Shown piece by piece: positions 30,173 to 35,815 of a stretch of 59,807 bases of DNA. Position numbers and translations under genes: made by a program. The notes beneath the pieces are model-generated. The model had not been told where the DNA came from. It searched no databases and saw only the letters and a list, made by a program, of their open reading frames with translations. This DNA is from an uncultured bacterium (GTDB lineage Bacteria; CAYMEV01): assembly GCA_964431655.1 (NCBI GenBank), contig CAYSKJ010000002.1, forward strand, positions 10,214 through 70,020, in the 5' to 3' direction. The stretch's first letter is position 1. Each line of letters starts with the position of its first letter.

Positions 30173-30610
30173 CTATTTTTCCCCTTTTACCCTTTTCAGT
30201 GTTGAGATGGCGGCAGCCTTGGAGTCCTTCCCGCTGTGCAGGTAGATATACTCTATGGTGTCCGGGTCTATTATGGTTCCTATGCTGTAACCGTCATCAT
30301 CGGAAAAGTAGATGGTTTTTTTGTCCCTGGACATTACCCCGACAAATTCTTCGGTATGATTCTCTGATATCTTTTTGCCGTGAAAAAGATGTCCCTGGGG
30401 TTTTTCAAAGATAAATTTTATCCCGAGCCCGGAAAAGTATTCCGTCTCCTGGGTGGTCTTGTTTCTGTGCTTGACATTTCCGCTTAAGACAGCTCCGCTC
30501 TCTGTTCCTTCCCATATCCCCTCAAGAGCGCACTCATCGGCAAAAAGAAAGCCGGTGCAGATAAATAAAAAGGCAAGAAATGCAATGACCTGGAAATTTT
30601 TCCTGAACAT
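30173..30610 (-). CDS. Small secreted protein of unknown function, last gene of the nqr-like operon
   Basis: Signal peptide MFRKNFQVIAFLAFLFICTGFLFA. The 145-aa body looks beta-rich. I recognise no motif. Confidence 0.6.
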   Translation of the reverse strand: MFRKNFQVIAFLAFLFICTGFLFADECALEGIWEGTESGAVLSGNVKHRNKTTQETEYFSGLGIKFIFEKPQGHLFHGKKISENHTEEFVGVMSRDKKTIYFSDDDGYSIGTIIDPDTIEYIYLHSGKDSKAAAISTLKRVKGEK

Positions 30611-30643: not shown

Positions 30644-31135
30644 TCAAATTTCACTTTTATTTTCGGGTTTTTCTACCTCGAGTATGTCAATCAGGTCCCG
30701 GGGCTCGATACGGTACTGGCTCTGTTTTCCCTGATAGAACCCGTGATACATGATGAGGTGTATCTGAATATCGGAAAATACCAGCTCTCTGCCAAGCCTT
30801 TTATTCTTAACGGTGGTGATACTCTTGGGAAGTATCTTCCTGCACTCAAAGGGGCAGGGAAGCTTGCCCCTGAAGGTCTCCACGCTGACGCTGAAATAAG
30901 GGGATATGTCTATAAAGTCTCCCAGACCCTTTTCACCCGTATCCCTGAAATATTTCATTTTACCGGCTATGGCTGTATGGTCATAACCCAGTCTCTTTAC
31001 CTCAGAATCATCCTCTGTAAGGATATCCACCAGTTTCCTCCGGTCTTTGCCCAGAAAGCCGTCCCTGGTAATTTTGCCTGGTCCCAGCCTATTCTGTATC
31101 TCCTGCATTTTAACCGTCTGTTTCATAAAAACCAC
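30644..31135 (-). CDS. Hypothetical cytoplasmic protein co-transcribed with nqrF
   Basis: 163-aa ORF starting 8 nt after the nqrF stop; internal Met codons are alternative starts. It contains LPCPFEC. I recognise no family. The overlapping + strand ORF 30611-31147 is judged spurious. Confidence 0.6.
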   Translation of the reverse strand: MVFMKQTVKMQEIQNRLGPGKITRDGFLGKDRRKLVDILTEDDSEVKRLGYDHTAIAGKMKYFRDTGEKGLGDFIDISPYFSVSVETFRGKLPCPFECRKILPKSITTVKNKRLGRELVFSDIQIHLIMYHGFYQGKQSQYRIEPRDLIDILEVEKPENKSEI

Positions 31136-31143
31136 CTGTATTT

Positions 31144-32250
31144 TTAACTGAATTTATCATAGAATATCAGGTCTTTCTTTACGCCGCACCTGTTTGTAAG
31201 GACATCAACACAGGCATTTATCATGCCCGGGCTTCCGCAAAGGTAGGCCTCCGCATTCTCTCCGTTTTTTACATGCTTTTCCACACATTCGGTTATAAGG
31301 CCGGTCTCTCCCTCCCAGCTGTCCGATTCCTCCGGCTGGGAAAGGGATGGAATAAAGCGGAAGTCAGGAAGCTCTTTTTCCAGCCTCTGCATCTCCTCAA
31401 CCAGGAATAAATCCCTTTTGCTCCTTGCTCCGAAGAAATAGACAGCCTTCCTGTTTATCTTCTTTTCATTCATGTCAAGAAGTATGGATTTTATTGGGGC
31501 CATGCCCGAACCGCCGGCAATGCATACAATATCTCTTTGGCTGTCCCTCAGGAAGAAATCACCGTAGGGACCGTTAATCATTACTTTCTGACCCTCTTTA
31601 AGGTATTTGTGGACATAGGTGGTGCACAGCCCGTCGGGCACATACCTTATTTCAAGCTCCACGGCATCTTTCCTGGAGGGTGGGGAAGATATTGAGTAGG
31701 CCCGGTATACCGGTTCATCGGTCATTTCATAAAGAGGCACTTCAAACTGTATGAACTGCCCTGCCTTGAAGCTGATTCCCTCACTGTTCTCCAGCTTCAG
31801 GGTAACCTGCTTAATATCATGAGTAAGATCAACCAGGGACTCCACCGCTGTCTTATACTGCTTTATATTGAAGAGTTCACGCGGTATGGTTATATCAAAG
31901 GGTTTTTTCACCTTAACCTGGCATGAAAGCCTGATGTTTTTTTCCCTCTCCCGAGGGTCTATCCATGGAAGCTCTGTCGGGAGGTATTCGCCCGCACCGC
32001 TGTTTACCTGTATTTTGCACAGGCCGCAGGAACCTTTGCCCCCGCAGGCTGAAGGAATAAAAATCTGCTTTTCCTTCAGGCTGGATAAAAGGGGCTTACC
32101 GCCATCAACCACAATCTTTTTCTCACCGTTTATGGTTATTTCCTGCTGGCCGTAGTTGGCTATGGTCCTGTCGGCAATTACCATTATTAATGCAAGAAAG
32201 GTGGTAAGGGCGGTTATTATGATTACTGTGATCAGCAGTTCAGAAAGCAT
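31144..32250 (-). CDS. nqrF: NqrF-type NADH oxidoreductase subunit (TM anchor, 2Fe-2S ferredoxin, FAD/NAD-binding domain)
   Basis: N-terminal TM helix. CGGKGSCGLCK...LSCQV (2Fe-2S), RAYSISS (FAD), GGSGMAP (NAD). Confidence 0.88.
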   Translation of the reverse strand: MLSELLITVIIITALTTFLALIMVIADRTIANYGQQEITINGEKKIVVDGGKPLLSSLKEKQIFIPSACGGKGSCGLCKIQVNSGAGEYLPTELPWIDPREREKNIRLSCQVKVKKPFDITIPRELFNIKQYKTAVESLVDLTHDIKQVTLKLENSEGISFKAGQFIQFEVPLYEMTDEPVYRAYSISSPPSRKDAVELEIRYVPDGLCTTYVHKYLKEGQKVMINGPYGDFFLRDSQRDIVCIAGGSGMAPIKSILLDMNEKKINRKAVYFFGARSKRDLFLVEEMQRLEKELPDFRFIPSLSQPEESDSWEGETGLITECVEKHVKNGENAEAYLCGSPGMINACVDVLTNRCGVKKDLIFYDKFS

Positions 32251-32261
32251 AGAATCTCCTG

Positions 32262-32855
32262 TCAGTTAATATCAATCATTCCTGAAAATCCCATGAAGGC
32301 AAGAGCCATGATACCGGCTATTATCAGGGCAATGCCTGCTCCTTCCAGCCCCCTGGGTATCCTTGCCCTGCTTGTTTTCTGCCTTATCCCTGCCATTGCC
32401 AGTATGGCAAGAAACCAGCCTATGCCTGAACCAAAGCCATAGGCAAAGGAGGAGAGAAGGCTGTATTCCCTTATAACCATGAACAGGCTCACTCCGAGAA
32501 TAGCGCAGTTGACCGTTATCAGGGGCAGGAATATGCCCAGGGAAAGGTAAAGGGTATCCGACACCCTCTCAATTATCATTTCCACTATCTGCACGAAGGC
32601 CGCTATAATGACAATAAATACAATATAGCGCAGATATTCTATATTGAAGGGTACAAGTATGTAATAATAGGCAAGGTAGTTAAGCACGCTGGTCACAGCC
32701 ATTACAAAGGTAACTGCAAACCCGAGTCCCACAGAGGTCTTAACCTCGCGGGAGACGGAAAGGAAGGAGCACATGCCGAGATAATTGGTAAGCAGGATAT
32801 TATTGGTGAATATGGCTGCAAAGAATATGGCAAAAGAAAGCATACCCTCGCTCAT
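32262..32855 (-). CDS. nqrE: NqrE/RnfA-family membrane subunit
   Basis: 197 aa, polytopic. TNNILLTNYLGMCSFLSVS signature. Confidence 0.85.
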   Translation of the reverse strand: MSEGMLSFAIFFAAIFTNNILLTNYLGMCSFLSVSREVKTSVGLGFAVTFVMAVTSVLNYLAYYYILVPFNIEYLRYIVFIVIIAAFVQIVEMIIERVSDTLYLSLGIFLPLITVNCAILGVSLFMVIREYSLLSSFAYGFGSGIGWFLAILAMAGIRQKTSRARIPRGLEGAGIALIIAGIMALAFMGFSGMIDIN

Positions 32856-33460
32856 TTCTTATCCTCCTTTATAATCACTCCCTTTATAATCCAGATAAAT
32901 ACGGCCAGCATGAAGAAGGCTCCGGGAGCCATGACCATTATGGACCAGTTTGTCCACCAGTCCCCCATCACCCTGAAACCCAGCAGGGTACCGGAACCCA
33001 TAAGCTCCCTGAATACAGATATGGTCAGAAGGACATAGGAATAGCCCAGGCCCGAGGCAAGGCCGTCAAAGAGGGAAAGCCCGGGGGGGTTGTTCAGGGC
33101 GAAGGCCTCTGCCCTTCCCATGACAATGCAGTTGGTAATGATCAGGCCCACATAAGGGCCCAGCTCGGAGGATATCTCGGGGACATAGGCCTTGAAAATG
33201 ATATCAACAATGATTACATAGCATGATATGACAAGCACCTCGACCATCATCCTTATCCGCGAGGGGATGAGCTTTCTCAGCACTGATACAGTCAGGTTGG
33301 AAAGGGAAAGGGTAAAGATAAGGCCGAAGCACATTACAAGGGTGTTTTTTACCAGGTTGGTGACTGCAAGGGTGGAGCAAATGCCAAGTATCTGGTAAAA
33401 AACAGGGTTATCCCTTAGAAGGCCCTCATAAAATATTTTGTTAATTTTCCTTTTATTCAT
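32852..33460 (-). CDS. nqrD: NqrD/RnfE-family membrane subunit
   Basis: 202 aa. RDNPVFYQILGICSTLAVT signature. 4-nt overlap with the next gene. Confidence 0.85.
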   Translation of the reverse strand: MNKRKINKIFYEGLLRDNPVFYQILGICSTLAVTNLVKNTLVMCFGLIFTLSLSNLTVSVLRKLIPSRIRMMVEVLVISCYVIIVDIIFKAYVPEISSELGPYVGLIITNCIVMGRAEAFALNNPPGLSLFDGLASGLGYSYVLLTISVFRELMGSGTLLGFRVMGDWWTNWSIMVMAPGAFFMLAVFIWIIKGVIIKEDKK

Positions 33461-34079
33461 TATTCCGGGTTTTTCCTAATTTTTCCTTCAGTTCCCGGGA
33501 TGCGCTGTTTATCATGTTCTTTACCGCCCCGGTGGTAAAGGTGGCTCCCGTAACTGCTTCAAACTGACCTTTGCCGGCATCGGTGCCCTCAGGAACAAAA
33601 TCAAGGGGTATCTGTTTACCCTCAAACTGCCTTCTGAACCACTGCTCCGTAATCCTTGCCCCAAGCCCCGGTGTCTCATTCTGGGATACAAAATCTATGC
33701 CGAGCAGGGTCTCTGCATCGGTGCCAAAGCTTATAAAGGCATCAATACTGCCCCACAGGCCCCTGCCGCGGAAAAATGTCGCATACCCCTGAAGAACCCT
33801 GCTGTCTGATTCCCGGCTGTATATCTCATAATACAGTATATTACCTTCGCTGTCAGCTTTCTCGACAATGGCTTCCCGGTAGACCCGGTCTATATCCCGG
33901 CTGGTTTCAGGGATTTGGATACCTGCGGATGAAAAAAGTCTCTGTTTTTTTACGGCTGACTCGTTTACCCTTATGGTTTCCTTTGTTAAAAGATAAACTG
34001 AGCTTACCAGGGTTATGGAGATAACAGTTATTACCGCCATAAAGCCTATGATATATGCGCTGTTCTTATCCCTGTCCAT
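33453..34079 (-). CDS. nqrC: NqrC/RnfG-family FMN-binding subunit
   Basis: 208 aa (RnfG-sized). N-terminal TM helix. Covalent-FMN motif VTGATFTT. Confidence 0.82.
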   Translation of the reverse strand: MDRDKNSAYIIGFMAVITVISITLVSSVYLLTKETIRVNESAVKKQRLFSSAGIQIPETSRDIDRVYREAIVEKADSEGNILYYEIYSRESDSRVLQGYATFFRGRGLWGSIDAFISFGTDAETLLGIDFVSQNETPGLGARITEQWFRRQFEGKQIPLDFVPEGTDAGKGQFEAVTGATFTTGAVKNMINSASRELKEKLGKTRNNE

Positions 34080-35013
34080 TCTTCTTCTTCAATGATTTTA
34101 ATCCGTAATCAATTATGGGTATGAACATATTTGCAAAAAGGATGGCAAACATTATACCCTCCGGCCATGCTGAAAACACCCTTATAAGGGTGGTCAGCAG
34201 GCCTATAATAAGGCCGTAGATGAGCTTTCCCTCCTTCAGCGATGATGCGGATACGGGGTCCGTAGCCATGAAGAATATACCCAGCATAAACCCTCCGGAG
34301 AACAATGCATGTATACAGGGTATGGAACCTGCAATGCCGGCAAGGTTAAGAGCAAAATTCATCGCCAGCATTCCGAATATGCCTGATATAACTATCCTGT
34401 AGTCGGCTACCCTCCTGTATATCAGGAATACCCCCCCGAGCAGGAGGAGAAGGGCGCTGGTCTCACCGAGACAGCCGGAAATATTACCGGTAAAAACCCT
34501 GAGAAGGGAGACGGATTCGCCCTTTTCAAGCATTGCAAGTGGAGTAGCCTGGGTCAGTGCATCACTGCTGTACCGGATAAATCCCCCAAAACCATGGCTG
34601 AAGGGCTCAACCCACCTGTTGGTCAGGAAATTGCCGAAGGATACATATATAAAAGCCCTGCCGACCAGGGCAGGGTTAAATGCATTCTTCCCGAACCCCC
34701 CGAAGACCATCTTGCCGAAAACAACCCCTGCCGCTATGCCGACTGCGGCCATCCAGAAGGGTATGGTAGGGGGCAGGGTCATGACATATAAGAGGCATGT
34801 AACAAATACGGAGGAATGGACAGGCTCTCTGTATTGCCGGGCAAACATGTACTCGCTGATATAGCCTGCTGTTACCACCACAGCAAGAAGTGCAAGGCCC
34901 CTCAGGCCGAAAAAGTATATGCCTGAGATAAATGCAGGGACAAGGGAATAAAGGACAAGCTTCATAGGCCTGACCCATTTTATATTAAACAGTCTCAGGT
35001 AAAGCTCGCTCAT
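34066..35013 (-). CDS. nqrB: NqrB/RnfD-family membrane subunit
   Basis: 315 aa (RnfD-sized). GGFGKNAFNPALVGRAF, DALTQATPL (FMN-threonine region), FFMATDPVS. Confidence 0.82.
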   Translation of the reverse strand: MSELYLRLFNIKWVRPMKLVLYSLVPAFISGIYFFGLRGLALLAVVVTAGYISEYMFARQYREPVHSSVFVTCLLYVMTLPPTIPFWMAAVGIAAGVVFGKMVFGGFGKNAFNPALVGRAFIYVSFGNFLTNRWVEPFSHGFGGFIRYSSDALTQATPLAMLEKGESVSLLRVFTGNISGCLGETSALLLLLGGVFLIYRRVADYRIVISGIFGMLAMNFALNLAGIAGSIPCIHALFSGGFMLGIFFMATDPVSASSLKEGKLIYGLIIGLLTTLIRVFSAWPEGIMFAILFANMFIPIIDYGLKSLKKKNGQG

Positions 35014-35089
35014 AACAATAATTATAGATTCAAAGCCTTAAGGGTCAAGAATATAATGCCGGCTATTTTATTTGCCTTTTTCAGCATAA

Positions 35090-35815
35090 TTGTTAATATC
35101 CTTGAATATGGAAGAGAGACCGGTCGCAACATTCGGGATTCTTATGTACAATGAACAGGAATCCATAATGGACATGTATCAGGACCTTAAAAAAGCCCTG
35201 AAAAATTTCCCTTTCTCCTATGAAATCCTTTATATAGATAACGGCTCCGCCGACAGCTCTTCCGATACGGTAAAGAGTCTTATGAAGACTGATGAAAGCG
35301 TATCCCTTTTCCGGATAGAGAAAAACCAGGGTTACGGGAACGGCATAATAGAGGGCCTGAAGCAGGCCAGGGGCAGTTATATAGGGTACATATGGGGGGA
35401 TAACCAGGTTAAGGCCGATGATATAATCAGGGTTTATAAAACAGCAGTGGCAAACCCCGGGTCTCTCGCCAAGATCTGCAGGATAAAGAGAGAGGACGGT
35501 GGAATGAGGGTTTTCGGCTCATATATTTACAATAAACTCTACTCTTTTCTTTTCCGGCTGGAGACAAGGGATGCCAACGGCTGTCCGAAGGTGTTTGAAA
35601 AGAAGCTGTTTGACAGGATGAATCTGAGGAAAAAAGACTGGCTAATTGACCCGGAAATACTTTATAAGGCAAAGAAACAGAAAATCAGCATTATTGAAAT
35701 GCCCATAGTGTTCTACAAGAGGGAGAAGGGTAAGTCCTACGTTAATTTAGGCACCTTTGCATCCTTCTTTTTGAAGCTTTTAATATCATATATAAAAAGG
35801 GATTTTGACCATTGA
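35090..35815 (+). CDS. Family-2 glycosyltransferase (dolichyl/polyprenyl-phosphate sugar transferase-like)
   Basis: FGILMYNEQESI, YIDNGSADSS, IWGDNQ. The track start is TTG; an ATG at 35108 is an alternative. Confidence 0.8.
   Translation: MLISLNMEERPVATFGILMYNEQESIMDMYQDLKKALKNFPFSYEILYIDNGSADSSSDTVKSLMKTDESVSLFRIEKNQGYGNGIIEGLKQARGSYIGYIWGDNQVKADDIIRVYKTAVANPGSLAKICRIKREDGGMRVFGSYIYNKLYSFLFRLETRDANGCPKVFEKKLFDRMNLRKKDWLIDPEILYKAKKQKISIIEMPIVFYKREKGKSYVNLGTFASFFLKLLISYIKRDFDH

Follow-up and report, generated by a model that had tools for sequence, protein, structure and literature searches.

NqrA-less Nqr operons of anaerobic bacteria carry a conserved sixth gene and may encode a rubredoxin-linked redox pump

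The Rnf and Nqr pumps are central to anaerobic bioenergetics and are known for two reactions, ferredoxin:NAD+ and NADH:quinone oxidoreduction. "Nqr" operons without NqrA have been flagged in genome papers since 2014 with no acceptor found. The arrangement NqrBCDEF was remarked in Thermotoga thermarum (Theth_1137-1141) and Thermotoga (Pseudothermotoga) lettingae (Tlet_0865-0869) (PMC4148951), in P. lettingae and Clostridium ultunense (CUESP_0375-0379), for which the authors suggested an acceptor with a potential below that of quinone (PMC5924567), in Salinispira pacifica as a five-gene Nqr-like complex, L21SP2_2184-2188 (PMC4511686), and as a cluster in Candidatus Izimaplasma (PMC6256511). A 2014 evolutionary study (PMC4014512) and a 2025 review (PMC12174285) leave the NqrA-less form untreated, and the literature searched holds annotation remarks only, with no functional proposal for it. 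Related "NQR/RNF-like" systems, found mainly in Actinobacteria and the Candidate Phyla Radiation, are recognized by one polypeptide that joins the membrane domain of NqrB/RnfD to a NAD-binding domain of NqrF type (PMC8238504). Here we describe an NqrA-less operon in a 59,807-nucleotide stretch of DNA, termed the window, from an uncultured bacterium (GenBank assembly GCA_964431655.1, contig CAYSKJ010000002.1, positions 10,214 to 70,020 of the forward strand). The operon appears, from sequence comparison, to specify a distinct functional variant of the Nqr/Rnf pumps with a new subunit and probably a new acceptor. An original prediction made from the window alone had singled out the NqrA-less arrangement, which the earlier remarks (PMC4148951, PMC5924567, PMC4511686) show to have been reported before. 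New here are a conserved sixth gene, termed X, the linkage of these operons to rubredoxin, rubrerythrin and desulfoferrodoxin together with fusions of X, and the finding that a menaquinone pathway is seen in none of 33 host genomes. The analysis thereby adds a conserved sixth subunit, a phylogenetic origin through loss of a redox-active RnfC-like module and rubredoxin as a specific, testable candidate acceptor.

The six genes lie on the minus strand of the window in the order B-C-D-E-F-X. The B subunit (NqrB/RnfD-like, 315 amino acids, 34066..35013; PF03116, E = 2.5e-90) is followed by C (NqrC/RnfG-like, 208 amino acids, 33453..34079; PF04205 (FMN_bind), E = 1e-14), D (NqrD-like, 202 amino acids, 32852..33460), E (NqrE/RnfA-like, 197 amino acids, 32262..32855) and a short NqrF (368 amino acids, 31144..32250; TIGR01941, 298 bits with a cutoff of 295). 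A six-frame list of open reading frames (ORFs) returns the order, lengths and coordinates given for B to F in the original prediction, and likewise its overlaps of 14, 8 and 4 nucleotides, the 11-nucleotide gap before F and the 76-bp spacer between B and a divergent GT2 glycosyltransferase gene (35090-35815). The operon had been read as five genes ending at nqrF, and this is corrected by X (160 amino acids, 30644..31126), a member of a conserved family that directly follows nqrF. Misassembly at 35.0 kb had been considered, and the junction is genuine because an independently assembled genome of the same genus shows the same divergent glycosyltransferase/B arrangement together with the operon. 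A promoter-like site, TTGACC-16 nt-TATAAT, is present just upstream of B on the same strand (35021..35048, 11/12 consensus matches); it is a consensus match only, and such sites are no commoner regionally than in shuffled sequence. With no gene for NqrA, RnfC or RnfB and with NqrF as the point of NADH entry, as first proposed, this is a genuine operon of the Nqr/Rnf family, and it could plausibly encode a functional six-protein member of that redox-pump superfamily.

The subunits were classified by scans against Pfam and NCBIfam, with the equivalog cutoffs as the class criterion. F alone passes its nqr cutoff, and B alone passes an Rnf subfamily cutoff, scoring 253 bits with rnfD (cutoff 207) and 259 with nqrB (cutoff 414). 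C matches nqrC and rnfG weakly (nqrC 87 with a cutoff of 144), D scores 233 with nqrD (cutoff 235), and E scores 223 with rnfA and 220 with nqrE (nqrE cutoff 248), both short of the cutoff. The Rnf-like sizes of B and C claimed at the outset hold at 315 and 208 amino acids. The best Protein Data Bank (PDB) match of B is Vibrio cholerae NqrB residues 130-400 (E = 2e-53), and the N terminus of B is very short, the N-terminal ~90 residues of canonical NqrB being missing. The best match of E is RnfA of Acetobacterium woodii (E = 2e-55) followed by V. cholerae NqrE (1e-53).

Every cofactor ligand is intact across B to F in alignments to solved structures and in our own alignment. The two attachment regions for flavin mononucleotide (FMN) that had been picked out in the original prediction, DALTQATPL in B and VTGATFTT in C, are present and align with known sites. 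In B the covalent-FMN threonine motif SDALTQATPL aligns with the known flavinylation site, and C, which has a single N-terminal transmembrane helix and an extracytoplasmic FMN-binding domain with a GAT site, aligns VTGAT to ITGST of A. woodii RnfG. D residues C28 and C111 align with C29 and C112 of V. cholerae NqrD, and in E the cysteine ligands lie in LGMCSFL and ITVNCAILG; since D and E each keep both cysteines, the intramembrane 2Fe-2S cluster can form. F has a transmembrane helix followed by Fer2, FAD_binding_6 and NAD_binding_1 domains, and its four 2Fe-2S cysteines and C-terminal phenylalanine align with V. cholerae NqrF, confirming it with the TIGR01941 score as the bona fide NqrF that had been proposed. 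Loops deleted from the flavin adenine dinucleotide (FAD) domain leave F ~40 amino acids short of canonical NqrF. The equivalents of V. cholerae NqrB D346 and D397 and NqrD D133, acidic residues implicated in Na+ handling in that organism, are kept in the alignments of B and D.

The window belongs to contig C2 of a 3.3-Mb, 91%-complete metagenome-assembled genome (MAG; G000), whose nearest relative is labeled Candidatus Sumerlaeota. The original prediction proposed looking for several genes elsewhere in the genome. No NqrA (TIGR01936) was found in this 91%-complete genome, ApbE is encoded on contig C95, and RnfB and RnfC are present but only within a separate complete rnfBCDGEA operon on contig C77 (C77:54-5318) and not in the operon described here. 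NqrA over the cutoff is likewise absent from all 33 genomes with an operon of the window's type, referred to as type I, and sub-threshold NqrA-like ORFs in the host genomes belong to separate paralogous operons.

X has an ORF of 163 codons with the start reassigned to the ATG at 31126, preceded by the ribosome-binding site AGGTGG at 31137-31132. The protein is soluble, has no signal peptide and carries the motifs RGKLPCPF and HLIMYHGFYQG. Its family consists of "hypothetical" proteins of ~156 amino acids with no match in Pfam or NCBIfam. A pattern scan of 185,579 species genomes finds X in at least 339 species, mostly Spirochaetota with Sumerlaeota, Krumholzibacteriota, Mcinerneyibacteriota, Bacillota and Lentisphaerota also represented, so that the BCDEF-only operon whose spread was to be surveyed is widespread in its X-bearing form. 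A profile search of 1.84 billion representative proteins gives 1,766 X-family clusters. Among the 80 best loci, X follows nqrF in 75, of which 63 have B-C-D-E-F complete and colinear immediately upstream and 12 are cut by a contig end but consistent. The remaining loci include two without room for an operon and one (L072) with X clearly alone. In that locus the X homologue (L072:6311-6778) lies beside HEAT-repeat and FG-GAP proteins with no BCDEF genes within 6 kb. The order is reproduced in an independent domain-wide sample, in which 10/10 X matches follow E-F, including diverged members (F ~50% and X 33-41% identical), and X follows F in 3/3 long contigs. Three larger proteins, P0225 (885 amino acids), P0255 (2506 amino acids) and P0356 (945 amino acids), contain three or four X-like stretches and no Pfam domain.

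The AlphaFold2 model of X has a mean predicted local distance difference test score (pLDDT) of 94.3 and a predicted template modeling score (pTM) of 0.89, and no fold neighbor was found for it in the PDB (best Foldseek E = 0.25, TM-scores at most 0.24). A remnant of RnfC/NqrA was considered and rejected, with an hhalign probability of 0.1%. Across 112 diverse members the near-invariant residues are D28, R30, D39, G87, C91-P92, K101, H123, H128, F130, G133 and R139, a set that would be compatible with a small metal/cofactor site or a docking surface and is not diagnostic of either. A Cys/His3 metal site is weakened as a candidate, as neither H50 nor D119 holds across the wider family and serine replaces C91 in 8% of members. 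X is proposed to be a cytoplasmic output or adaptor subunit with a predicted new fold, unrelated to RnfC/NqrA.

The arrangement of the NqrF-bearing operons illustrates how X relates to the A/RnfC subunit. Type I, as in the window, is B-C-D-E-F-X with no A/RnfC gene and with short B, C and F. Type II (L110, L111, L112, L114, L115 and L131) has an RnfC-like A' of 467-531 amino acids followed by B-C-D-E and a short F, type III (L113, L116 and L117) has an RnfC-like protein followed by D-G-E-A and a 150-amino acid F with the transmembrane and ferredoxin parts only, L107 is D-G-E-A-RnfC'-F, and canonical Nqr is NqrABCDEF. Both CxxCxxCxxxC (4Fe-4S) motifs of RnfC are kept by A' in types II and III, L107 and the basal Nqr L108, and they are lost in mainstream NqrA. 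NqrA is a cofactor-less homologue of RnfC (PMC12174285, PMC4014512), which overturns the premise of the original prediction that RnfC was lost and NqrA recruited. A and X are mutually exclusive, as seen in 23 type-I operons versus 33 other operons (type II, type III, L107, canonical Nqr and Rnf), all of the latter having an A/RnfC subunit and none having X.

A tree of concatenated B+D+E from 56 operons (720 columns, LG+C20 with posterior mean site frequencies (PMSF), rooted on ten Rnf operons) unites the NqrF-bearing operons in a single clade with a support of 100, the ten Rnf operons being separate with 100% in the Shimodaira-Hasegawa-like approximate likelihood ratio test (SH-aLRT). Within the clade L107 branches first and next type III plus L115, and a later split (97) divides type II and canonical Nqr from L106 and type I (100). 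The 22 type-I operons in the tree are monophyletic (99%, and 100% with L106), and the window operon pairs with a Sumerlaeota MAG. The window operon is therefore placed in the sister clade to type II plus canonical Nqr, with 97-100% SH-aLRT. A basal type I, in which all A-containing NqrF operons are held together, costs 46.6 units of log likelihood (delta lnL) and is rejected by the approximately unbiased (AU) test (p-AU 0.008), the constrained group having been named after the tree was seen. The window operon thus does not branch within canonical Nqr. The view taken of it in the original prediction, that of an evolutionary intermediate, is not supported, as type I is nested among A'-bearing NqrF operons. 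It is this nesting among operons with an RnfC-like subunit that indicates the A/C subunit was lost in type I. On the evidence of the sequences, type I is a derived lineage in which a redox-active RnfC-like output subunit has been lost and X gained. The phyla are intermixed within type I, indicating horizontal transfer. Types II and III and L107 represent the real Rnf-to-Nqr transitional forms and are apparently undescribed; with NqrF and an Fe-S RnfC-like subunit side by side, they make the Rnf-to-Nqr transition directly testable.

Several further loci were seen in this comparison. One spirochaete chromosome (CP070696) bears types I, II and III plus Rnf. Genes of UbiA-family prenyltransferases adjoin A' in two type II operons (G048:C7:80503-81249 next to L110 and G043:C4:156349-157098 next to L111), a hint that type II, in contrast to type I, may have some connection with a prenylated acceptor resembling a quinone. 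In L106, which is the deepest of the A-less relatives, about 800 bp separate F from a downstream X (G029:C1:436969-437435) that is split into two ORFs covering residues 1-101 and 106-154. In three genomes (L126, L127 and L130) nqrA scores above the cutoff and the 9 kb downstream revealed no B-F genes; the operon may be split there.

The neighborhoods of type I operons were characterized by clustering of the flanking ORFs and subsequent Pfam checks. Genes recurring downstream of X encode rubredoxin, rubrerythrin, desulfoferrodoxin, ferritin, a Fur/PerR regulator and nitroreductase. Rubredoxin, rubrerythrin or desulfoferrodoxin is found within 5 kb in 26 of 59 evaluable operons (44%) and in at least five arrangements. 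The rubredoxin gene often lies 10-350 bp beyond X in the same orientation, and at least seven changes of the linkage state are required on the type-I tree. Across 430 kb of control loci (type II, type III, Nqr and Rnf) these queries matched a single gene, a rubrerythrin that immediately precedes B, in the same orientation, in the A-less L106. Fusions join X to a complete rubredoxin (P0296), to a rubrerythrin-like domain (P0238) and to a nitroreductase (P0281), each of the fusion genes being placed directly after E-F or after an F fragment. Rubredoxin is encoded in 42/43 X-bearing genomes, the exception being G029, in which no PF00301 rubredoxin occurs, X is split and a rubrerythrin gene adjoins the operon. 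Seven locus tags separate the C. ultunense rubrerythrin CUESP_0386 from the A-less operon CUESP_0375-0379 (PMC5924567). The window's own genome has a PerR-rubrerythrin-desulfoferrodoxin-ferritin cluster (C23:14888-16749) and a rubredoxin-nitroreductase cluster (C23:25414-26206), both unlinked to the window operon. The gene pairs on C23 are the same pairs that adjoin X in spirochaetes.

We propose, with a probability of roughly 0.45, that B-C-D-E-F-X is a NADH:rubredoxin-type oxidoreductase that translocates ions and in which X forms the output module on the cytoplasmic side. The more specific form of this proposal, a Na+-translocating NADH:rubredoxin oxidoreductase that would make up a third functional Rnf/Nqr class, with X replacing RnfC/NqrA and feeding rubredoxin, rubrerythrin and superoxide reductase, is advanced more tentatively. 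Electrons would pass from NADH to F (FAD, 2Fe-2S), the D/E cluster, C (FMN) and B (FMN, riboflavin), and would leave B on the cytoplasmic face via X, or via a surface organized by X, to a soluble high-potential acceptor. The most likely acceptor would be rubredoxin, with rubrerythrin, superoxide reductase and related enzymes receiving the electrons from it. NADH has a potential of about -320 mV and rubredoxin lies near 0 mV. The resulting drop of ~300 mV is similar in size to that from NADH to menaquinone, making ion pumping energetically plausible, and it would drive the export of Na+ (or H+), so that the anaerobe would conserve energy while detoxifying oxygen species.

Several points weigh against this proposal. 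Ion translocation and ion specificity are assumed by homology. X has no recognizable cofactor motif and its sole cysteine is serine in ~8% of the family, and X may be a mere structural cap or assembly factor. No rubredoxin or rubrerythrin gene adjoins the operon in the window or in the members from Sumerlaeota, Krumholzibacteriota, Mcinerneyibacteriota and Bacillota, and the neighborhood signal stems for the most part from Spirochaetota, which leaves the loci non-independent in phylogenetic terms. Adjacent genes can also become fused when no electrons pass directly between their products, and rubredoxin is common in anaerobes generally, so that its occurrence in 42/43 genomes discriminates weakly. 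A diverged MenA-like prenyltransferase also occurs in the window genus. Since the window's genome has its genes for rubredoxin, rubrerythrin, desulfoferrodoxin, ferritin and PerR on a different contig, the acceptor suggested for the window follows from the family and not from local context. Each of the four alternatives considered below is nevertheless less likely than the rubredoxin-linked pump.

The best of these is an unlikely one, in which the complex is a quinone reductase with X as a structural cap replacing NqrA and with an exogenous or unusual quinone made by way of the MenA-like prenyltransferase. In its favor, ubiquinone in the V. cholerae enzyme sits in NqrB and the cofactor-less NqrA has no direct function according to the 2025 review (PMC12174285), a point that also removes NqrA from the quinone-side role assigned to it in the original prediction. 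Some UbiA-family gene is present in 26/33 host genomes, the MenA-like gene of the window genus being one source for such a reading. This protein is diverged, scores 67 bits with a cutoff of 102 and stands alone outside any men cluster. MenB and MqnA were used as the quinone markers because the diverged MenA-like gene muddles the UbiA/MenA test, and MenB over the cutoff or a convincing MqnA occurs in 0/33 type I host genomes, including that of the window, with no UbiA-family gene at all in 7/33. The N-terminal region of canonical NqrB is missing from B, and the fusions of X to rubredoxin, rubrerythrin and nitroreductase would be left unexplained. A quinone acceptor is thus unlikely, and the different, non-quinone acceptor foreseen in the original prediction is likely.

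An outward conduit, in which NADH electrons leave the FMN of C (or B) for a periplasmic or extracellular acceptor and X has an assembly or regulatory role, is improbable. Flavinylated extracytosolic systems are widespread (PMC8238504), and X in the window is followed after 33 nucleotides by Y (145 amino acids, 30173..30610, minus strand), a signal-peptide protein with a strong ribosome-binding site that might serve as a partner. Y has no Pfam or NCBIfam match and is absent from 79/80 related loci; it is confined to this genus, so that it is doubtful whether Y belongs to the system. On this ground Y was ruled out as a conserved partner, and no conserved secreted partner is found across the 80 loci. 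The return-path subunit B is also kept with its FMN site and acidic residues, and X, a soluble protein without a signal peptide, occurs in fusions with cytoplasmic redox proteins.

A second Rnf-like enzyme, which would draw on the ion gradient to reduce ferredoxin or flavodoxin with NADH, the low-potential carrier being docked by X, has an equally small chance of being correct. The membrane core is common with Rnf, which runs reversibly (PMC12174285), and the hosts are fermentative anaerobes that need reduced ferredoxin. The same genomes already have a complete Rnf, however, and the linked or fused partners are high-potential or peroxide/superoxide-related proteins and not ferredoxins, the clustering of flanking ORFs revealing no recurrent ferredoxin or flavodoxin near type I operons. 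Least probable is an Rnf-to-Nqr intermediate predating NqrA recruitment, for which the Rnf-like lengths of B and C and the scores between the Nqr and Rnf models could be cited, but which is contradicted by the nested position of the clade and the AU test given above, by the derivation of NqrA from RnfC (PMC4014512) and by the existence of the true transitional forms, with NqrF and an Fe-S RnfC-like subunit, as separate operon types.

If the rubredoxin-linked pump is correct, many strict anaerobes would conserve energy as they detoxify oxygen and peroxide instead of only paying for it, and the reduction of oxygen species would yield ion-motive force in spirochaetes, Sumerlaeota, some clostridia and similar strict anaerobes. 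The model would likewise reveal what reduces rubredoxin physiologically in spirochaetes and in other anaerobes.

One of the closest known systems is the Na+-NQR of V. cholerae (PDB codes 7XK3 and 8A1T), whose subunits are the top PDB hits of B, D and F and which has the same B-C-D-E-F order, NqrF domains, ligands and acidic residues. In a noticeable difference, the window operon lacks NqrA, and B is shorter by ~90 N-terminal residues, C by ~50 amino acids and F by ~40 amino acids. Compared with canonical Nqr as a group, type I is a sister clade with the extra subunit X, in hosts without a detected quinone pathway. Rnf of A. woodii and Clostridium tetanomorphum (PDB codes 9ERI and 7ZC6) has a homologous membrane core, and the window B and C are of Rnf size, whereas the operon has no RnfB or RnfC, takes in NADH through NqrF and falls outside the Rnf clade. 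The clusters of Pseudothermotoga, Thermotoga, C. ultunense and Salinispira have the same five genes without NqrA by their published descriptions and come from anaerobes that also have Rnf; in the reports on Thermotoga, C. ultunense and Salinispira, neither a sixth gene nor a position in a phylogeny nor any tie to rubredoxin and rubrerythrin is mentioned. The "NQR/RNF-like" systems of Meheust et al. (2021; PMC8238504) are likewise partial Nqr/Rnf systems from genome mining, but in the window B (PF03116 only) and F are separate genes and C, D and E are all present. In clostridia and Pyrococcus, NADH:rubredoxin oxidoreductase (NROR) belongs to the pyridine-nucleotide-disulfide oxidoreductase family and is a soluble flavoprotein that is not energy-conserving. 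It catalyzes the same net reaction as proposed here, from NADH to rubredoxin and on to rubrerythrin and superoxide reductase, whereas B-C-D-E-F-X is unrelated to it in sequence, membrane-bound and presumed to be an ion pump.

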